Shown piece after piece: positions 5,216-22,428 of a stretch of 37,987 nucleotides of DNA (positions are counted from its first letter, which is position 1; every line of letters starts with the position of its first letter). Origin of the DNA: a virus (taxonomy: Duplodnaviria > Caudoviricetes); the IMG/VR virus record IMGVR_UViG_3300049016_000030, positions 1-37,987 of that record. One strand, 5' to 3'. Both the position numbers and the translations under genes were made by a program. Below the pieces are notes generated by a model. The model was given only the letters and a program-made list of their open reading frames with translations, had not been told where the DNA came from and made no database searches.

Positions 5216-5369
5216 TCTCCACCTCGCGGGCGAGTGCGTCCCCAGCGCATTTTCCGCCCGCCGACACCGGGGCGTCCTCGAGGGAGGCCGCGCCCCGGTG
5301 TGACATTCCCCACACCCAAACATCCGGCGTGTGACGCAAGAGAGCCCGCACGCCGGATTGATAAATCTT

Positions 5370-6545
5370 ATGATCGACAAGAAATATTCACCAAAACACG
5401 GCCGCAAGATGTGGGGCTACGATGAAAGGTTTCTGGACGGCGCGGGCCGGACAAAACGCGTCCGCCGGTACGAATTCGAGACGCGCGACGAAGCCGAGGA
5501 GATGGTTGCCGCATTGAGAAGGGCAGAACGAGAGAGGGAGTACGGATTAAGCCCCTTGATCAACCGCCCGACGCTGCAAGAATTGATTGAAAAACGCATA
5601 CCGACATTGGCGGAAAGGGCCGAGCGGAGCAGGGCAAGAAGGGTTTTATATACCTGGCTGTCGCTGCTGGATGCGAGGGTGAAACTGGATAAAACCTATT
5701 CTCCCCTTCCCGGCTACCGATCGCCGGTGAAAATCGACGAGGTGGATACGCCGAAGATTCGGATCTATGTCATCCGGCGCCAGGGAGAAAAGCAGAGTGC
5801 CGCGTCTATCAACCGTGAATTAAACATAATTGGCGCCACACTTCACCAGGCGGAAGAGTTCTTTTCGGAGTTAAAGCAATGGAAGGCGCCGAAGATTCCC
5901 CGGCTGAAAGTTGTCAAAAGTCGCCGCGAGAGACTGATTACGGAGGACGAATACGACCGCCTGGTCGCTCATTTACGACGCGGGCCTGACGAGCTGGACG
6001 GTGATGGGCGTAGCCAGAATCGGCAGAATGCTTATCAGGCGAGGGTAAGAGTTGCACAGATTCTTGAATTTGCCATGCTTACCGCGGCGCGACATGGAGA
6101 AATTGTGGCCCTGAAATGGTCGGACATTTCCTGGGAGCGGTCGAAGGTGCTGATTTATCAGAAGAAGACCGGAGACTACAAAGAGGTTCCGCTGATTCCG
6201 TCCTTAAAGGCCCTGCTTGAAGAGCGCAAGCCGGCTACGGGCCGTTTCGTGTTCACCGAAGGCGGTAACATCTATCCGAAGTTCTATCGGGTCTTAAAAG
6301 AGGCATGCGGGCAGCTGGGCATTCCGTATGGTAAGAACATTGAAGATGGGCTGGTGCTTCATGCGGCGAGGCATACCGTCACGACGCGATTAGTCGAAGC
6401 CGGGCTGGATTACGACACCATTGGGTTGATTACAGGGCATCGCGCAAAAGAACTGATTGCTCACTACTCCCATAAGCACCCTGCCTCGGTCGCGCGCGCC
6501 GCCGAAGCTCTCGAAAAAATCCACACCCGCCGAGAAGAATCTTGA
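5370..6545 (+). CDS. int: Phage tyrosine integrase
   Basis: TAARHGE (R), KT (K), LHAARH (HxxR), TGH, HYSH (Y); N-terminal arm-binding-like domain (FETRDEAE). Confidence 0.93.
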   Translation: MIDKKYSPKHGRKMWGYDERFLDGAGRTKRVRRYEFETRDEAEEMVAALRRAEREREYGLSPLINRPTLQELIEKRIPTLAERAERSRARRVLYTWLSLLDARVKLDKTYSPLPGYRSPVKIDEVDTPKIRIYVIRRQGEKQSAASINRELNIIGATLHQAEEFFSELKQWKAPKIPRLKVVKSRRERLITEDEYDRLVAHLRRGPDELDGDGRSQNRQNAYQARVRVAQILEFAMLTAARHGEIVALKWSDISWERSKVLIYQKKTGDYKEVPLIPSLKALLEERKPATGRFVFTEGGNIYPKFYRVLKEACGQLGIPYGKNIEDGLVLHAARHTVTTRLVEAGLDYDTIGLITGHRAKELIAHYSHKHPASVARAAEALEKIHTRREES

Positions 6546-8969: not shown

Positions 8970-9125
8970 ATGAACAACGGACCAGAGATACCACCAGCAG
9001 CAAAAGTCTTACTACTAATCCTACTCGCGTTCGGCCTGTGGCTCGTTTCTCTCGCGTACAAACACGCGGGAGAGCCGAGCGTTCCGACTGCTGAGACGCT
9101 GGGGCGGAAGAGGCAGGTGAAATGA
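8970..9125 (+). CDS. 51-aa single-TM protein
   Basis: AAGGAG RBS; VLLLILLAFGLWLVSLAY; ATGA overlap with the methyltransferase. Confidence 0.6.
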   Translation: MNNGPEIPPAAKVLLLILLAFGLWLVSLAYKHAGEPSVPTAETLGRKRQVK

Positions 9126-10237
9126 TCATAAACGCATCTGCAGACAATTTACCATTCGCCGATACCTGCTTTGATGCGGTCGTCACTGATCCGCCTTACG
9201 GCCTGGCGTTTATGGGCAAGCGATGGGATTACGACCTGCCCAGCGTCGAACTATGGCGGGAAGTTTACCGCGTGATGAAGCCAGGCGCGCACCTCTTAGC
9301 GTTTGGTGGCTCGCGCACCTATCACCGAGCAGTCTGCCGAATCGAAGACGCAGGCTTTGAGGTCAGGGATTGTGTGATGTGGCTGTACGCCAGCGGATTC
9401 CCAAAATCTCACAACCTGGAAGACGAATGGGAAGGCTGGGGGTCAGCCCTGAAGCCAGCGCATGAGCCAATTGTCCTGGCGCGTAAGCCTCTTGATGGGA
9501 CCATTGCTGAAAACGTGGCGAAGTGGGGATGCGGCGCCCTGAACATTGACCGATGCCGAATTGAGGGCAAGGTAATCAATCCACTTGTGAGGAATGCCCC
9601 TGGTTTTCAAAGCGATGGGCTGATTCAAGGCCCTACTGGGAAAGGCATGGTAAGCGAAGGCCGATGGCCTGCAAATGTCATCCACGATGGCAGTGATGAA
9701 GTTCTGGCCTTCTTCCCTGACGCCCCTGGTCAGATCGCGAAGGTTGACGGGACAGAGCCTAGCGCGAAAACTAAAGATATTTACGGCAAGTTCAGTGGCT
9801 GCCGCGCGCCAGCAATCCCGCGCGTCGAGACAGATCGCTCAGCGGCGCGCTTCTTCTACGCCGCGAAGGCCAGCAAGAGCGAGCGCGAAGCAGGGCTTGA
9901 CCGCCTGCCGGAGCGCACGAAGGTTTTCAACGGCCAGAGCGGCGAATCCAGCCAAGATATGAAGCCGGTCGAGGAGCGCTTTACGACGAAGGCGCGCAAC
10001 TTCCATCCAACAGTCAAGCCAATCGCCTTGATGCGCTACCTGTGCAGGCTGATCACGCCGCCCAATGGGCTGATCCTTGATCCCTTTTTTGGCTCAGGCT
10101 CAACAGGCGTGGCCGCCCAGCGTGAAAACTTCAGATACGTTGGCGTCGACCTAGTTGGCGAATATACCCAGATCGCCAGACTCAGAAACGAGCACGAGGC
10201 GAACAGGTTTCCGCTTTTTGCTCAGATCGGCTCTTAA
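9122..10237 (+). CDS. DNA methyltransferase, N6-adenine/N4-cytosine, beta class
   Basis: N-terminal TDPPYG; HPTVKP; C-terminal LDPFFGSGSTG SAM-binding motif. Confidence 0.93.
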   Translation: MIINASADNLPFADTCFDAVVTDPPYGLAFMGKRWDYDLPSVELWREVYRVMKPGAHLLAFGGSRTYHRAVCRIEDAGFEVRDCVMWLYASGFPKSHNLEDEWEGWGSALKPAHEPIVLARKPLDGTIAENVAKWGCGALNIDRCRIEGKVINPLVRNAPGFQSDGLIQGPTGKGMVSEGRWPANVIHDGSDEVLAFFPDAPGQIAKVDGTEPSAKTKDIYGKFSGCRAPAIPRVETDRSAARFFYAAKASKSEREAGLDRLPERTKVFNGQSGESSQDMKPVEERFTTKARNFHPTVKPIALMRYLCRLITPPNGLILDPFFGSGSTGVAAQRENFRYVGVDLVGEYTQIARLRNEHEANRFPLFAQIGS

Positions 10238-13270: not shown

Positions 13271-13714
13271 ATGACGCTACACCTACAGCCAATTGAATGG
13301 GACGAGGCTTGCGAGTTTATTCGCAGGCATCACCGACACCATCCGCCGCCACAGGGCTGGAAGTTTGGCGTTGCGGTGAATGACGGCGAAAACGTCGTCG
13401 GCGTCGCCATTATTGGCCGTCCGGTAAGCCGTCACTTTGATAATGGTTGGACGTTGGAGGTTACAAGGCTGTGTGTACTGGAAGGCTATCCGAACGCGGC
13501 GAGCAAACTGTGGGCAGCGGCGTGGCGCGCAGCGAAGGCGCTGGGATACAGAAGAATGGTTAGTTACACATTGCCTGACGAAAGCGGGACATCTCTGCGA
13601 GCTGCGGGGTGGAAAGAAGTGGGATTGGCTGGCGGGGGAAGTTGGAATAAGCCTAGTCGGCCACGAGTGGATAAAGCACCGACTGTGCAAAAGAAACTAT
13701 GGGAGGCTGCGTAA
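13271..13714 (+). CDS. XF1762/Mom-like GNAT-fold putative DNA base-modification enzyme
   Basis: EACEFIRRHHRHH...GVAIIGRPVSR...LEVTRLC...YTLPDESGTSLRAAGW. Confidence 0.8.
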   Translation: MTLHLQPIEWDEACEFIRRHHRHHPPPQGWKFGVAVNDGENVVGVAIIGRPVSRHFDNGWTLEVTRLCVLEGYPNAASKLWAAAWRAAKALGYRRMVSYTLPDESGTSLRAAGWKEVGLAGGGSWNKPSRPRVDKAPTVQKKLWEAA

Positions 13715-13994: not shown

Positions 13995-14201
13995 ATGAAC
14001 GCTCAGGAAGCATACGAACACTACGACAAAACCGGCGAGGACGTTTTCCTCTTTACCAAGAACGATGTAACCCTGAAGGTTGTTTTCGTTACCGACGCGG
14101 GCGACGTGTACGTGCCGAGGCTTGGAAAAGGGTTTTTGGTGCAGAACTTCTATGACGGATGGAAAGCCAACCCGATAGGAAAATCAGACCCGCTCACATA
14201 A
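13995..14201 (+). CDS. Hypothetical protein
   Basis: GGAGG RBS before ATG 13995. Confidence 0.6.
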   Translation: MNAQEAYEHYDKTGEDVFLFTKNDVTLKVVFVTDAGDVYVPRLGKGFLVQNFYDGWKANPIGKSDPLT

Positions 14202-14218
14202 CCTATATTATGCACGAC
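14191..14218. other. dif/res-like recombination site
   Basis: CGCTCACATAA-CCTATA-TTATGCACGAC: CATAA-N6-TTATG core, as in E. coli dif. Confidence 0.6.
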
Positions 14219-15055
14219 ACAGAACTAAACAACTTAGACTCTCTTATGGCTGGTTGGCTCGATAGCGGACGCCGTAGCAGCGCTCACACACAAGAGGCGT
14301 ACAAGCGGGACGTGCGCGCTTTTGTGGCCTATTCCCGCAAGCCAATCAAAGAGACTGAACCGGGCGATGTGATCGGATATCAGGCGTACTTGCGCCAACA
14401 GGTCGGAACCCCGGCAACTGAATACCGCAAGCTCTCCGCACTGCGAAGCTTCTTCAAATACCTGAAGCTAACCAAGGAAATCAAAGAAGACCTGGCCGTG
14501 ATCATCAAGACGCCGAAGGTTCAGAGCAATTTCAAAGCGAAGGCGCTGAGCGTGGCCGAGATTCAGGCCATCATTGACGCCGCCGCGCCCAGCCCGCTCG
14601 ATTCCCTGCTGCTGCGAATGCTGTATGTGACAGGCGGGCGGATTTCTGAAGTCCTGGCTCTCACGTGGGCACACCTGAGAGCGGCGGACACTGGGGGCGG
14701 ATACGTCCACATTCTTGGCAAGGGCAAGAAAGAGCGAGAGGTCTATATCGGGCCGGAACTGTGGGCGGACCTGGACCGGCATATCACCGACGACGGCGCT
14801 GACGGGCACCTGTTTCAACTGGATCGCCACGAAGCAGCGGCAATGCTGAAGAAGGCCGCGAAGGCTGCAAAGATCACCAAAGCTGTCACGCCGCACGTCT
14901 TCCGGCATTCCCTGGCGACAAATCTTCTGGCGAGCGGAAAGGCCACGCTGATGCAGGTCCGCGACCAGCTTGGACATTCCGACATTTCAACCACGTCGCT
15001 TTATCTTCACGCTGAGGATCGCGCAGCAATGATTCGGGATATGCCGATTAAATGA
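14210..15055 (+). CDS. XerC/XerD-like tyrosine recombinase (resolvase type, no arm domain)
   Basis: SAHTQEAY, TGGRISE, GKGKKER, TPHVFRH, LGHSDISTTSLY. Confidence 0.93.
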   Translation: MHDTELNNLDSLMAGWLDSGRRSSAHTQEAYKRDVRAFVAYSRKPIKETEPGDVIGYQAYLRQQVGTPATEYRKLSALRSFFKYLKLTKEIKEDLAVIIKTPKVQSNFKAKALSVAEIQAIIDAAAPSPLDSLLLRMLYVTGGRISEVLALTWAHLRAADTGGGYVHILGKGKKEREVYIGPELWADLDRHITDDGADGHLFQLDRHEAAAMLKKAAKAAKITKAVTPHVFRHSLATNLLASGKATLMQVRDQLGHSDISTTSLYLHAEDRAAMIRDMPIK

Positions 15056-16787: not shown

Positions 16788-17426
16788 ATGACTGCAACTC
16801 AAACAATTTACGCTGCCGCTGGCTCCGGCGACACAGCCGGAACCTGCCGCCTGTGCGGCGCTGAGGGGACCGGCCAACTCTTCGATAAATGGGTGAAAGA
16901 CGCCTTCACGAATTTCGACCTACTGCAAGGTGGCGAAATCGCCTGTCACGCCTGCCTGTTCTGCGCCGAGGAGAAAAGCGTCTTGATTCAAACCAAGCTC
17001 GGCAAGGATAAACCGCAAAAGACGCGCAACTATTCGCACTTCGTTTTGCGCGGCGAATGGTTTCCGCTCTCGAAAGGCGACAAGCGAAAGATGCGCGAAT
17101 TGCTCAGCCAATCGCCAGAGGTTGCGGTGATCGCAGAATCCGGACAGAAGCATCTTTGCTTTCGCGCTCGCCCTGGCTGGTGGCAATTCGAGGAACAGGC
17201 GATGCTTTCCTGCTGGGATAAAGTCAATTCCCTGCTGCCGGTTATCGAAGAACTCATGGCGGACTTCAGTAAATCTGAAATCGAATCGGATCACTACCTG
17301 CAATATCGAATTATCAAATTCGGCGTCGAGCGCTGGCGGAAACTATCAGAGTCCCTGCGACCAGTCCGCCTCGCGCCGCATTTTCAACTCGCGCTATTCC
17401 TGGCGCAGAAAGCCGAGGACGAATGA
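16788..17426 (+). CDS. csf1: Type IV CRISPR-Cas large subunit Csf1 (Cas8-like)
   Basis: N-terminal CRLC...FTNFD...CHAC Zn site, SGQKHL motif; first gene of the csf operon. Confidence 0.8.
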   Translation: MTATQTIYAAAGSGDTAGTCRLCGAEGTGQLFDKWVKDAFTNFDLLQGGEIACHACLFCAEEKSVLIQTKLGKDKPQKTRNYSHFVLRGEWFPLSKGDKRKMRELLSQSPEVAVIAESGQKHLCFRARPGWWQFEEQAMLSCWDKVNSLLPVIEELMADFSKSEIESDHYLQYRIIKFGVERWRKLSESLRPVRLAPHFQLALFLAQKAEDE

Positions 17427-17794
17427 CACACGAAGAAATAGCCGAAAACCTATTAACCCCGCTCTGGCAAGGGATTGACGCCGGATACAAGGCCAAATAT
17501 TCGCTCACGATCTGGCAGCAATTCGAAGACAATATCCGCTCGGCGGCCTATACGAGCAGCGCGGCGGACTTTCTCTCAAGGATCAAGACGCGGCTGGGAA
17601 TTGTGATTCGCGGTGACGACCTGGCCAAAATCACGAGCATTATTACCGCTGGCGAGGATCGCGCATTACTCAAAATGCTTCGCGAGCATTCTTCGCTTTT
17701 AGTCGTACTCGTTCGCGCGGCCAATGAAGAGCGGCGCGCGGAATGGCACAAACAAATGGACGCAACGAAGACCGCGAAGCAGAACGCGGCGTAA
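17423..17794 (+). CDS. cas11: Type IV-B small subunit Cas11 (Csf4)
   Basis: 123-aa alpha-helical ORF between csf1 and csf2 (IWQQFEDNIRSAAYT); ATGA overlap. Confidence 0.7.
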   Translation: MTHEEIAENLLTPLWQGIDAGYKAKYSLTIWQQFEDNIRSAAYTSSAADFLSRIKTRLGIVIRGDDLAKITSIITAGEDRALLKMLREHSSLLVVLVRAANEERRAEWHKQMDATKTAKQNAA

Positions 17795-17802
17795 GGAGAC
17801 TT

Positions 17803-18777
17803 GTGGAAACAATCGTATTTGAAGGCGAACTGCTCGCGCTGACCTCAATTGCGCACAATGGCGGTCAATCATTCGGGATCGAATCAAAACTTAGACGCGA
17901 ACGATTCGTCCAGCCGGACGGAACCGTCGAGGAAGTGCCCGTAATTTCAGGCAATGGCCTACGTGGAATGCTGCGCGACCGTGGGATGTGGCATATGTGC
18001 CGGCAGTTAGGCTATGGCGTGGACGAAGAGAACGGCAAGGTATTGGGCCTGAGTCTTTCCGCCTTTTACTTTCTCTTTTCTGGCGGCGCGCTCACTGAAG
18101 CCGGCAGTGGCGGGATTGACGTTGAGTATGCGCGGAAACTGCGCGAGACGATTCCGCTGATTTCACTCTTCGGCGGCGCCGTCGGGGCGCAGATACTGCC
18201 GGGAAAGTTGAAGGTTGGCAAGGCGATTCCGATTTGCGCCGAGACGATTCATTTGCTGCCGAAGACCTACCAGGAACGCGCCACGCCTTCAATTTGGGAC
18301 TTCCTGCAAACCGAAATGTATACGCGCAAGGACGATGAACGAAACGAGAAACTGCGCACGGTGATCGAAGGAAAGGCGCTGAAGCAGATTGCAGGCGCCC
18401 CGGCAGCGCTATTCGAGGCGGCGCCGGTCGAGGTCGCCGAGGCCGTCGAGAAGCGCAAGCCGCAGCAAATGATGTATCTCACCGAGACCTTCGCAGCCGG
18501 AACACTCTTCTACTGGAAATTGATTCTCGAAGACCTGACGGACGTGGAATACGACGCCTTTATGACCGTGCTCGTTGAGTTCTCGAAAATGCCCTACGTC
18601 GGCGGCAAATCGGCCGTAGGACTCGGCGAAGTGGCAATCAAGCTCGGTCAGGGTATCCAGATCGATTCGCGGCTGAAGGCTGAAGCAACGGAACTCGCGC
18701 GGCCGGCTGGGATGGCATATCACGAGCATTTAAAAAGCCGTGGCGGCGATATTCGGAAGATTCTGGAAACGGTATGA
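17803..18777 (+). CDS. csf2: Type IV Cas7-family RAMP Csf2
   Basis: LTSIAHNG, VPVISGNGLRGMLRD, LFSGG, PLISLFGG, YTRKDD, Gly-rich loop GGKSAVGLG; AAGGAG RBS with GTG 17803. Confidence 0.9.
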   Translation: METIVFEGELLALTSIAHNGGQSFGIESKLRRERFVQPDGTVEEVPVISGNGLRGMLRDRGMWHMCRQLGYGVDEENGKVLGLSLSAFYFLFSGGALTEAGSGGIDVEYARKLRETIPLISLFGGAVGAQILPGKLKVGKAIPICAETIHLLPKTYQERATPSIWDFLQTEMYTRKDDERNEKLRTVIEGKALKQIAGAPAALFEAAPVEVAEAVEKRKPQQMMYLTETFAAGTLFYWKLILEDLTDVEYDAFMTVLVEFSKMPYVGGKSAVGLGEVAIKLGQGIQIDSRLKAEATELARPAGMAYHEHLKSRGGDIRKILETV

Positions 18778-19586
18778 CCGATACGATACCGCGCGCAAAA
18801 CTGGCGCTATGGGCAGGTTGGCGATACTACCGCAGGCTCGCGCTGGAATATCCCGAAGATTTTCAGCAGGCGGCGGCGCTGCTCGCGCTGTCGTCGGTTG
18901 AAGTATCGGACGATAAAGAAGCGTTCCGGCTCATCACTCGCGGCTTTGCGCGAGTCTGCCGCTCTTACGGGTATCGCTATCATCCACAGGCCGGATGGAT
19001 CAGGGGCGAAAGCTACGCAAGCGTAAGGCCCGCATATCTATGCAAGTGCGGGCGAAAGTCGTTCAGCGCCAAACACTGCGGAGCTTGTCGAAGTCGTGAG
19101 TATCGCGAACGAGGGCCGAAAGCGCGGAAAGAACGCGCGCCGAAATCGCCGCCGCTGTGGAACTGCGCCAACTGTGGCAAGTCGTTTGAGAAAGCAAAAA
19201 GGCGAATGCGATCAGATCAGAATATTTATTTCTGCTCGACGGCTTGCTACCACGACGCGCGCTCCAGGGAGGTCTGGCGGTTGACCGCGCAGGCGAATAT
19301 CACGAGGCACGCGGTCGAGCGGTTTTGTGAGCGGGTAATTGCGTGGCGTCCTGAGCGGGCGCTTGCCGCGATTCGCAGAGGATTATCGAAACCGATCGCG
19401 ATGATTCGCAAACGAAAAGGCTGGGAAGCGACGTGCCGGATAGGCGCGCTTGAATTTCGCGTGCATCTCAAACGAAACGCTGAGAATTCGCTTGACGCCG
19501 TGACGGTGCTCGAAAGCCGCGCGGATAACGATCAAATGCGAGCGGAAAGGAGGTCGCGCCGAGATGAATCAAGCAGAAAGTCATAG
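18774..19586 (+). CDS. ORF X: helical N-domain, two Zn fingers and a RelE/BECR-like (DUF4258-like) putative RNase
   Basis: CKC...CGAC; CANC...FCSTAC; ITRHAVERFCER...DAVTVL; overlaps both csf2 and cysH. Confidence 0.6.
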   Translation: MTDTIPRAKLALWAGWRYYRRLALEYPEDFQQAAALLALSSVEVSDDKEAFRLITRGFARVCRSYGYRYHPQAGWIRGESYASVRPAYLCKCGRKSFSAKHCGACRSREYRERGPKARKERAPKSPPLWNCANCGKSFEKAKRRMRSDQNIYFCSTACYHDARSREVWRLTAQANITRHAVERFCERVIAWRPERALAAIRRGLSKPIAMIRKRKGWEATCRIGALEFRVHLKRNAENSLDAVTVLESRADNDQMRAERRSRRDESSRKS

Positions 19587-20322
19587 AGAATCCTGTTTAT
19601 TACGCGCCAGACTGGCGGGCTTTGCACGATTGCTAGGGCGAACTGAGGCGATAATTCGCGAGGCGTTTAGCCAATCCGCAAGACCCTATGTCGCGCTGAG
19701 TGGCGGCAAGGACTCGACCGTTCTACTCTCGCTCGTCCGCGAGGAAAGGCCGGATACCGCGGCGATCTTCAGCGACGATGAATGGAATTTCCCCGAGACG
19801 ATGGCGTACCTGGATACGGTTCCGAACCTTACCCGCGCCGCTTCGCGCGTTCGCCATGCGTCCTGGTTTACGAGTTGGGAGAGTGGGCCGGTAGGCCTAC
19901 CGGCCGATACAATCTGGCTCGACGCAAAACAGGGTGACGGGATTCCATCGTTCGCGCGAGGTCGCGGCTTCGATTTGGCGTTTATCGGGCTGCGAAAAGA
20001 AGAGGCCACATACAGGCGTCTGCACCTATGCGGGCGCGGGACGATATTCTATTGCCACACTCACCAGGCAATCGAGTGCAATCCGCTGGCAGATTGGAAG
20101 GTCGAGGACATATGGGCATATCTGCTAAGTAGAGAAATCCGATACAACGCCGCTTACGATCGGATGACTGGTCTAAACGTTCCTCTTCCTGAACAACGCG
20201 TCGGGCCGTTCGCCGTCGAAAAGGCCGTTGGCCAGGGCTCGCTCGCGATCATCAAGCGCGGCTGGCCTGAATTGTGGAATCAATTTACTGAACGATACCC
20301 AGAGGCTTCGAACTATGCGTAA
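19564..20322 (+). CDS. cysH: CysH-like PAPS-reductase-family protein of type IV-B systems
   Basis: PP-loop SGGKDS, GLRKEE...R, NPLADW...DIWAY...YNAAYD. Confidence 0.88.
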   Translation: MNQAESHRESCLLRARLAGFARLLGRTEAIIREAFSQSARPYVALSGGKDSTVLLSLVREERPDTAAIFSDDEWNFPETMAYLDTVPNLTRAASRVRHASWFTSWESGPVGLPADTIWLDAKQGDGIPSFARGRGFDLAFIGLRKEEATYRRLHLCGRGTIFYCHTHQAIECNPLADWKVEDIWAYLLSREIRYNAAYDRMTGLNVPLPEQRVGPFAVEKAVGQGSLAIIKRGWPELWNQFTERYPEASNYA

Positions 20323-20995
20323 AAACGATTTCCTGCGAATCACCGCGAATTTCCAAACGCCTGTAATCTGCGACGACCGGCTGCCGCTCGACGGGATTAT
20401 TTTCTATCAGGTTATGCGCGAACGGTATGGTTTCGAGTCTTCCACGCAGGCCGGCGTTGCGGCGCTGGCTGACGGCGTGGACAAGCGCGATTGGATGCCG
20501 TTTGACGTGCATTACAAAAACGTCAACGGCGAAAACTTCTGGTATTACGCCTGCTCTTTCGCGCGCTGGGTCGGGACGGTCGCCGAGGGCCGGGACCATT
20601 GGGTGAAGCGCTTCGACCAGCAATTCAGCGATGTGATCGACTTTCAAGGCAAGCGTGGAAAGATCGTCACCGCGAACGGTAAATACAAGGGCTATCGAAT
20701 GCCTGTCTTTACGCGTCACGCGCTCGCGGCTCGCTGGTACTGCGTCGGCGACCGGCGCGAGTTGGAGCGGCTATTGCCCCACGTCCAGAGCGTCGGGAAA
20801 AAGACTTCCCAGGGTTACGGGGTGGTTCGCGACTGGCAGATCGAGCGCTGGCATGCGGACTGGAGCACGCGCGGTCCGCAAGGACTGATGCGCGCACTGC
20901 CGGCTGATACCGGCGTCAAGGTTGGCTTTCGGCCCAGCTACTGGTTTGCGCCGAATCAGGCGATTTGCGAGATGCCGGCAGATTATTCCGACTGA
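20315..20995 (+). CDS. csf3: Type IV Cas5-family RAMP Csf3
   Basis: LRITA...LPLDGII, YKGYRMP, WYCVGD...LL...VGKKTSQGYGVV; start is ATG 20315. Confidence 0.87.
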   Translation: MRKNDFLRITANFQTPVICDDRLPLDGIIFYQVMRERYGFESSTQAGVAALADGVDKRDWMPFDVHYKNVNGENFWYYACSFARWVGTVAEGRDHWVKRFDQQFSDVIDFQGKRGKIVTANGKYKGYRMPVFTRHALAARWYCVGDRRELERLLPHVQSVGKKTSQGYGVVRDWQIERWHADWSTRGPQGLMRALPADTGVKVGFRPSYWFAPNQAICEMPADYSD

Positions 20996-21007: not shown

Positions 21008-21052
21008 AAAAAAAAACAGCCTGCCGAGGGGATCAATCCGGCAGGCTTTTGA
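21008..21052. terminator. Bidirectional intrinsic terminator
   Basis: A-run, stem AGCCTGCCG/CGGCAGGCT, T-run; lies between convergent operons. Confidence 0.8.
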
Positions 21053-21073
21053 TTTGTTGGTTGGGGTTGCGGA

Positions 21074-21880: not shown

Positions 21881-22058
21881 GATCCTTGAAAACTCAATGA
21901 AGGGCTGGACTTTTGCGGCTTTCGGAGTCTGTTTCAAGGTTTGTGATTGTGCGCGGCATTTTCGATTCCCCGAAGGTTATCAGCCGGAAGCCTTTCACCT
22001 CTCTTCGCGCGTCCCTGCGGCTCTCACTCACCAGCCATTCATTGAATTTTCAAGGATC
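21881..22058 (-). ncRNA. Candidate structured leader/ncRNA closed by a 28-bp stem
   Basis: Arms 21881-21908 and 22031-22058 are 26/28 complementary; internal C(UUCG)G hairpin; begins about 20 nt after the predicted transcription start. Confidence 0.55.
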
Positions 22059-22084: not shown

Positions 22085-22113
22085 ATTCTACGCGAACGCG
22101 GATAATATTGCAA
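22085..22113 (-). promoter_or_regulatory. Leftward sigma70-type promoter
   Basis: TTGCAA-17 nt-TAGAAT. Confidence 0.7.
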
Positions 22114-22137
22114 TAGGCAGACGCAAATAATCTGTGC

Positions 22138-22166
22138 TTGCGCGTAAAAATAATTCAGCGTATATT
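22138..22166 (+). promoter_or_regulatory. Promoter of the HTH gene
   Basis: TTGCGC-17 nt-TATATT. Confidence 0.6.
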
Positions 22167-22182
22167 AGGAGTGGAGGTAGTA

Positions 22183-22395
22183 ATGGAAAAACTTACAGTC
22201 GCGGAAGCGGCGAAACTTAAAGACTGTTCGAAAAGCACGATCTTGCAGTTAATACGAAAGAATCTCTTGCCAGCCGAACGCAAGGGGCCGATATTCTTGA
22301 TTCCCCGATACGCCGTCGAAGCATATCAACTGCCGGGGCCTGGGCGTCCGCGCGGTAGAAAAAACTTACCGAAAAAAGAAGATTTATCTTCGTAG
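22183..22395 (+). CDS. HTH_17 (Xis/MerR-like) regulator with AT-hook-like tail
   Basis: LTVAEAAKLKDCSKSTILQLIRKNLLPAERKG; PGRPRGRK; GGAGG RBS. Confidence 0.85.
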   Translation: MEKLTVAEAAKLKDCSKSTILQLIRKNLLPAERKGPIFLIPRYAVEAYQLPGPGRPRGRKNLPKKEDLSS

Positions 22396-22399
22396 CCTA

Positions 22400-22428
22400 T
22401 TGCAATAATGTACGCACTCGCGTATATT
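22400..22428 (+). promoter_or_regulatory. Rightward sigma70-type promoter
   Basis: TTGCAA-17 nt-TATATT; inverted copy of the promoter at 22085-22113. Confidence 0.7.

Follow-up and report, generated by a model that had tools for sequence, protein, structure and literature searches.

The window, by which we mean the whole stretch of DNA analysed here, is an entire IMG/VR virus record of 37,987 bases with an estimated completeness of 58%, and it encodes integrases, methylases and tail genes. Near-identical DNA is present in soil metagenomes from several studies. The window carries an operon with the gene order csf1-cas11-csf2-X-cysH-csf3, typed as IV-B by PADLOC and Pfam; NCBIfam Csf models also match the operon genes, with scores under their curated cut-offs. 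The features of the operon are as follows:

16788..17426, plus strand, csf1 (Cas8-like; PADLOC Csf1_0_IV, 5e-16)
17423..17794, plus strand, cas11 small subunit (PADLOC Cas11_1_IV, 2e-26)
17803..18777, plus strand, csf2 (Cas7-like; PADLOC Csf2_0_IV, 3e-79), with a GTG start after an AAGGAG site
18774..19586, plus strand, ORF X, a three-module protein of 270 amino acids with an ATG start
19564..20322, plus strand, cysH-like gene of the PAPS reductase family (Pfam PF01507, PAPS_reduct, 5e-19)
20315..20995, plus strand, csf3 (Cas5-like; PADLOC Csf3_0_IV, 2e-42)
21010..21055, no strand assigned, hairpin with A/T-rich flanks 3′ of csf3 (inverted repeat I23; absent from the terminator-scan list)

The hairpin is likely to be the operon terminator; the promoter and terminator scan of the window performed at chance level. 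The window holds no CRISPR array, no 18-mer in three or more copies and no Rfam match, and neither cas6 nor a helicase gene was found in it, a statement that, given the completeness of the record, holds for the window only. Among the public runs, no RNA data set was listed for the operon. The closest named relative of the operon lies in a prophage of a Pyrinomonadaceae MAG (L027; Csf2 76% identical), and a host among the Acidobacteria is therefore likely. Around the operon we also observed 12 extra in-frame bases near the csf1 start (window position 16824) in contigs of three runs, a long inverted repeat at 21881–22058 (28 nt, 93%) and another at 22089–22424 (30 nt, 83%), whose arms enclose a small excisionase-like HTH gene and overlap promoter-like sites, and a 21-nt direct repeat ahead of the next two genes (22453, 22942). 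Upstream lie two tyrosine recombinases, an N6/N4 DNA methylase and a Mom-like modification gene (5331–6545, 14159–15055, 9122–10237 and 13271–13714).

ORF X is a genuine gene, since its GC3 (0.62) fits that of the operon (0.60–0.73) and full-length homologues exist at 27–84% identity. A preliminary description of this DNA had noted an ATGA overlap with the csf2 stop and a 23-nt overlap with cysH, and both are in the sequence (18774–18777 and 19564–19586); the ribosome-binding site of cysH lies inside X. The protein is, as was also stated there, very basic (pI 10.3; 59 lysines and arginines against 29 aspartates and glutamates), with finger cysteines at residues 90, 92, 102 and 105 and at 131, 134, 154 and 158, and the C-terminal motifs that had been quoted stand at residues 176–187 and 241–246. 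The placement of X is not an assembly artefact, because public soil DNA contigs from different studies bridge both the csf2–X junction (records 10 and 29) and the cysH-start junction (records 14, 23 and 30) without differences. The X sequence also runs into cysH in a second strain that is about 85% identical (records 12 and 13), and no joint skipping X was seen among the public-run contigs.

Relatives of the whole protein are few. The first search returned three proteins; among 1.84 billion representatives 23 were found at E ≤ 0.001, eight of them at ≤ 1e-10, and a wider profile gave six. Ten rows are full-length homologues (alignment A3), and genomic contexts were retrieved for only two of these. 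The N-terminal domain is kept without the C-terminal one in 7 of 17 family rows, although contig ends may account for some of these. X as query gave no matches in IMG/VR, JGI metagenomes or GenBank phages, and neither did P0007 as query or a short-protein search for X; none of the NCBIfam or PADLOC models names a family member, nor does any Pfam model, and PDB sequence searches returned no relevant domain match. The AlphaFold2 model of X reached a mean pLDDT of 89 with 17 alignment rows, against 62 with three; in both models X was folded as a whole protein, not as separate domains. The modules are:

18792..19007, plus strand, residues 7–78, predicted sigma-70 region-2-like helical domain (VIA Z 4.9–5.8; Atlas 0.93; alignment A4)
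19041..19088, plus strand, residues 90–105, first Cys finger (variable; absent in P0006 and P0007)
19164..19247, plus strand, residues 131–158, TRASH/FCS-type Zn-finger motif (Pfam zf-FCS 0.03; 2das E 0.017)
19287..19532, plus strand, residues 172–253, predicted BECR-fold domain (conserved H179, R187, R229 and T244)

The weak resemblance of the N-terminus to sigma-70 region 2, remarked on in the preliminary description, finds some support in structure comparison, at modest scores. Sigma-factor entries make up 13 of 50 VIA rows (Z 4.9–5.8) and superpose with an rmsd of 2.2–3.6 Å over about 60 residues; language-model features in Atlas reach 0.93 to Sigma70_r2 clusters (7 of 30 hits). There was no hmmscan match of X to Pfam Sigma70_r2, and the Atlas structure search returned no sigma row. 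G15, D29, Q32, Y65 and G66 are invariant in 17 rows (A4), and D29 and Q32 fit what we take to be the D-L-x-Q core-binding motif of sigma region 2.2. The region 4 HTH is absent, with Zn-finger motifs in its place, and the four cysteines of the second finger are invariant in ten rows. Kinship of this domain with the sigma-like genes that precede cysH in L101, L104 and L105 was considered and found unsupported (hhalign 18.5, with shuffles reaching up to 21).

For the C-terminus a RelE/BECR-like ribonuclease motif had been claimed, and structure prediction followed by fold searches indeed points to a BECR/RelE-like fold at residues 172–253. In the model a short strand leads into two helices, followed by four strands and a long C-terminal helix, and the BECR core (helix H193–205; strands E209–213, E216–223, E226–234 and E240–247) has pLDDT >90. 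RelE ranks first in Foldseek for both models, weakly (E 0.12–0.13); RelE, ParE, BrnT, MqsR, colicin D and CdiA entries account for 22 of 50 VIA rows over residues ~170–255 (Z 5–6.1), and Atlas gives a TM of 0.66 to DUF4258 and of 0.76 to an unnamed Acidobacteriota cluster. The best VIA match is PYCH_01220 (PDB 6l7q; Z 7.6, rmsd 3.3, 73 aligned residues, 19% identity), presumably a colicin-D-like, nucleic-acid-binding protein. All these Z-scores are below 8, a level at which, according to the tool, scores can reflect a common arrangement, and so the assignment rests on the many rows that agree. Homology among the BECR-domain subfamilies is solid by profile comparison (hhalign 96–99%, scores of 50–87 against ≤16 for shuffles). 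A complex predicted for the BECR domain of X with Csf1, Csf2 and Csf3 scored 0.15, the mark being 0.32, and counts neither for nor against an interaction.

Conservation in the domain centres on a few residues. An 18-row alignment spanning the subfamilies shows H179, A180, F184 and T244 without variation; in a set of 38 rows, 21 of which come from one host clade and from which L046 and both L054 frames were left out, H179 is kept in 35, R187 in 34, R229 of strand 3 in 32 and T244 in 36. His179 is replaced by Glu in P0006 and P0007 and by Ser in L049. No aromatic residue or histidine is conserved after the last strand. A recent BECR preprint assigns DUF4258 to a colicin-like group, whose sites combine a histidine of the pre-alpha helix with last-strand residues, and contrasts it with RelE-like toxins, which rely on strand 3 and a C-terminal tyrosine; the characterised colicin-like members are, in its account, mostly tRNA-cutting toxins (10.64898/2026.08.28.747851). 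A survey of RelE/ParE architectures lists DUF4258 with unknown activity, as far as its accessible text goes (PMC11980606). The conserved histidine in the first helix and threonine in the last strand, with no C-terminal tyrosine, fit a colicin-D/DUF4258 site better than RelE proper. X resembles colicin-like BECR proteins by its residues and RelE-like toxins by its outer topology. X has no Pfam match to DUF4258 (PF14076), the best being E 0.0026 in one of 18 relatives.

It is conceivable that the fold merely binds RNA or DNA and that X is a non-catalytic, sigma-like transcription factor for the operon. Such a regulator would suit the invariant D29 and Q32 of the sigma-2-like domain, which match the D-L-x-Q motif, and the ParE entries, which are not RNases, at VIA ranks 2–5; the replacement of the histidine in 3 of the 38 rows and the frequency of HTH and sigma-4 genes in phage IV-B operons would agree with it too. 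However, the histidine and threonine are kept across very distant subfamilies, and a profile of the N-domain gave no matches in 80 csf2-selected loci, so that this module is not a general IV-B feature. We consider the regulator reading quite doubtful. Sigma-like and sigma-4/HTH genes do recur between csf3 and cysH in other operons (L101:8587–9186, L104:5906–6499, L105:8648–9199, L005:2826–3473, L093, L100, L113 and L115).

The BECR domain is linked to cas operons of phages and bacteria. The Pyrinomonadaceae prophage has a IV-B operon in which P0028, a homologue with 33% identity to X, separates csf1 from cas11. A domain-profile search of IMG/VR gave eight loci: five have csf genes, two of these being near-identical, two (L050 and L054) adjoin cysH-like or ParB-like genes in partial records without csf2, and one is without such context. 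P0029 as query found two loci, one after cas11 and one unrelated; two phage homologues (L046 and L055) have no cas or cysH-like neighbour, and domain relatives as queries found nothing in the phages and plasmids searched. In the reverse test, over the 80 csf2-selected loci (947 kb), the domain was present in nine at E<1e-11, two of which are training rows of the profile, and in a further two at E of about 0.01. All 11 matches adjoin a csf gene, the new ones lying 84–300 nt before the csf1 match; the same profile gave no match in the reversed control or in 17 cysH-only loci. When the distant subfamily served as the IMG/VR query, 11 of the 12 loci recovered were in csf operons, a count that is partly circular. 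Four slots are occupied, one ahead of csf1 and the others in the csf1–cas11, cas11–csf2 and csf2–cysH intervals. The domain gene is often the first of its module—ahead of csf1 in six clusters and ahead of cas4 in hosts—and in X, L057 and L049 the domain is fused to DNA-binding modules. As separate observations, the domain gene of L054 (3198–3389) is in two frames and apparently broken, and in L045 (8335–9453) an opposite-strand ORF that reads as transposase/TnpB-like comes after the domain gene and breaks up the operon.

The preliminary description had entertained a chance insertion of X, which the recurrence of its homologues in cas operons argues against. A related proposal is that the gene is a passenger, a mobile or merely tolerated phage gene that settles in well-expressed operons without taking part in CRISPR function. 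The IV-B operons of phages are porous, with Vsr, HNH, HTH, AAA, cupin, SpoU and radical SAM genes in the same slots; a Zn finger joined to a nuclease is a layout typical of mobile phage endonucleases, X does not occupy the same slot in L027 as in the window, and related unnamed phage families exist (phrog_8252 and phrog_6182). A passenger would nevertheless have to account for 11 of 11 matches in 947 kb adjoining csf genes, for the 11 of 12 loci from the partly circular search, and for the purifying selection on the host version, which keeps its place beside cas4-cas1 while effector modules are exchanged; we think the proposal unlikely. The slots also hold sigma-4, other sigma-like and homing endonuclease genes. 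Vsr/HNH homing endonucleases, a phosphatase and SpoU methylase pair and a radical SAM gene are seen in or beside IV-B operons (L092:6208–7017, L158:4747–5694, L092:8613–9535 and L119:8585–10123). A ParB-like gene often follows the operon, in several cases with a second cysH-like gene (L051, L053, L057, L125, L138 and L141), a pair that we take to be IbrA/IbrB-like.

X is optional in IV-B operons. In L001 csf2 is joined directly to cysH, and its Csf2 is 74% identical to that of the window and 85% identical to that of the X-bearing L027. The cysH gene itself has been swapped between these close operons (L001:6975–7730 and window 19564–20322, 27% identity). We rejected a joint arrival of X and cysH as a single cassette: CysH of L027 is 46% identical to that of the window with X elsewhere in the operon, and CysH of L001 is a different one. 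With csf2 clustered at 85%, 61 clusters comprise 8 with the domain, 9 with Cas6, none with both and 44 with neither; the flag of the L027/L090 cluster was dropped before these counts, X being only in L027, as were two Cas6 matches (L145 and L129; E about 0.01, short and far from the operon), and the sequence of the domain locus L136/L172 stops short of cysH, so that a Cas6 may lie beyond its end. The exclusion is not significant overall (p=0.26) and reaches p=0.015 only within a distant clade of 21 related clusters that was chosen post hoc. In the csf2 tree the Cas6 loci and domain loci interleave within one supported clade, and Cas6 sits in slots of the domain, before csf1 in L154 and L131 and between csf2 and cysH in L134. 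The Cas6 proteins are of two kinds, one Cas6e-like (L108, L131, L134, L143/144, L149/150, L154, L158–L164 and L166). IV-B has been described, in the published texts available, as having no nuclease or array and Cas6 only as a rare exception (PMC8175902; 10.1101/780106; PMC12669027); nine of 61 phage csf2 clusters suggests that Cas6 is commoner than this implies, although some of the Cas6-bearing loci may be IV-D-like.

These counts weigh against the earlier suggestion that X could be the nuclease missing from IV-B, taken here as an effector that the Csf complex would bring to a bound target for its destruction. A predicted RNase domain translationally coupled in the effector operon, and recurring by csf1, cas11 and csf2, is what such an effector would look like. 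Yet only 8 of 61 csf2 clusters have the domain, it is missing from every IMG/VR locus of the 40 nearer clusters, the close operon of L001 is without it, and host carriers can already have Cas3, their gene following cas4-cas1 and not one effector type. Being optional, X is not the missing general IV-B nuclease, and a role in target destruction seems to us very improbable.

The second setting of the domain is in bacteria. Searching 401 genomes of the class of the L027 MAG, which we take to be Blastocatellia, with the X profile revealed stand-alone versions of the C-terminal domain (102–128 amino acids) in 15, and the domain profile raised this to 24 genomes; a phylum-wide sample had the domain in 3 of 401. 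In all 24 evaluable host loci of one Cas4 clade the gene lies directly before cas4, 9–384 nt upstream (23 of 23 without G247, which is flagged as unpublished); G322 (E 7e-4 over 23 residues, no cas neighbour) and G171 (cas4 cut by a contig end) were left out of the counts. Among the 25 genomes whose Cas4 reaches at least 65% identity to the query, 24 carry the gene and the last is cut by a contig end, whilst nine with a Cas4 at 42–60% have no domain match and in the three of them that were read cas7 adjoins cas4. In the tree this fixation is of one clade and one event. On its 5′ side the gene is next to cas7 in the loci read, the neighbour being cas7c in 17, cas5d, cas3 and CARF-HEPN in one each, and a contig end in four. 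It stays with cas4-cas1 across exchanged effector modules (I-C, I-D and type III contexts), and its median dN/dS of 0.19, from the 52 of 210 pairs that are unsaturated, points to purifying selection. In these loci (L030–L044, L065, L070 and L074–L080) the BECR-like gene before cas4 is unannotated.

The preliminary description had also raised a toxin held in check by the complex. The BECR domain would then cut tRNA or mRNA and be silenced by the Cas complex or a co-expressed product, making the cas operon addictive. CreTA is reportedly an addiction system of this general kind, to which the present case would be likened, here with a protein toxin. The tRNA-cutting toxins that predominate among the characterised colicin-like BECR proteins, in the preprint's account, and the fixation in 24 of 24 loci of one clade speak for addiction, as does the scarcity of space for a dedicated antitoxin gene: cas4 follows at 9–134 nt in 20 of the 24 host loci, too close for a downstream antitoxin gene, and at 236–384 nt in four, whilst X, which overlaps csf2 and cysH, has no adjoining antitoxin gene at all. 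But the partner complexes differ (Csf, I-C, I-D and a type III context), which makes a common protein antitoxin unlikely, and the absence of X from L001 despite a Csf2 so close to that of L027 implies easy gain or loss. Addiction is on balance rather unlikely, if still to be taken seriously.

Our tentative preference, which could well be wrong, is that X is an optional accessory and a predicted endoribonuclease acting on RNA of its own locus, in guide maturation or message control. The BECR domain would mature the RNA of the complex in place of Cas6, or cut the operon message, with His179 and Thr244 and a nearby arginine as the putative catalytic residues, and the sigma-2-like and Zn-finger modules could tie X to RNA polymerase and DNA. 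We favour a locus-RNA endoribonuclease because the common factor is the cas operon and not one partner protein, and because the gene tends to open its module, is frequently joined to DNA-binding parts and has no antitoxin neighbour in the loci read. T4 RegB, a phage BECR enzyme used in mRNA processing, offers a precedent. Type I-C systems process crRNA with Cas5, and a maturase would thus be unneeded in the host I-C loci. Further points against the locus-RNA reading are the replacement of His179 in P0006, P0007 and L049, the overall p for Cas6 exclusion, and the fact that IV-B operons also collect homing endonucleases and unrelated genes. More ambitiously, and as a long shot, the domain could be a non-orthologous replacement of Cas6 that excises the natural IV-B guide RNA, the sigma-2 fusion of X would let a guided Csf complex bring RNA polymerase to DNA sites, and one Acidobacteria lineage would have fixed the domain in its cas4-cas1 module; dCas12f-sigmaE is said to carry out RNA-guided transcription, of which X with Csf would be a class 1 counterpart.

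What type IV-B complexes do, and which RNA they naturally carry, are described as open questions in the portion of the literature available to us (PMC8175902). A predicted small RNase at four positions of IV-B operons, not found together with Cas6, offers a direct handle on the RNA loaded by Csf proteins. The presence of the same family before cas4 in complete host CRISPR loci, apparently unannotated as Cas-linked, makes it testable where immunity and adaptation can be measured. We found no description of this BECR family in the literature searched, although supplements and subscription lists of cas-linked genes may hold one, and the word ‘CRISPR’ is absent from the accessible text of the BECR preprint (10.64898/2026.08.28.747851). 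The family is likely to be an undescribed, optional CRISPR accessory, whose task would be to process or control the RNA of its own operon and not to destroy targets.

Considering known systems, the operon matches subtype IV-B in its csf1, cas11, csf2, csf3 and cysH-like genes, the lack of an array and the location on a mobile element (definition in PMC8175902 and 10.1101/780106, as far as accessible), but carries an extra predicted BECR gene where the published descriptions available list no nuclease. The predicted N-domain of X resembles region 2 of the sigma-70 family in its helical fold and D-x-x-Q motif, but X has no region 4, the N-domain being followed by Zn fingers and the BECR domain. 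Its best structural match, PYCH_01220 of Pyrococcus yayanosii, is itself a hypothetical protein. With colicin-like BECR RNases (DUF4258/Ntox49, colicin D and CdiA-CT) it has in common the core of two helices and four strands, the first-helix histidine and a polar residue on the last strand; it differs in lying outside the Pfam family, in its cas-operon context with no immunity gene seen, and in having, like the RelE-like topology, an additional short strand at the N-terminal side and a C-terminal helix. The best Foldseek rows came from RelE/ParE type II toxins, which share the pre-strand, pre-helix and C-terminal helix, whereas X has no C-terminal tyrosine, conservation centred on His and Thr, and no adjoining antitoxin gene in the loci read. 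Within CRISPR biology, the only CRISPR-linked RelE in the available text of the 2025 classification is the CARF fusion Cami1 (PMC12669027). Cami1/Crf7 (CARF-RelE) of type III is a BECR-fold RNase linked to CRISPR-Cas, as we propose for X, but the X family has no CARF sensor, and its links are with IV-B operons and cas4-cas1 modules instead of cyclic-oligoadenylate signalling.
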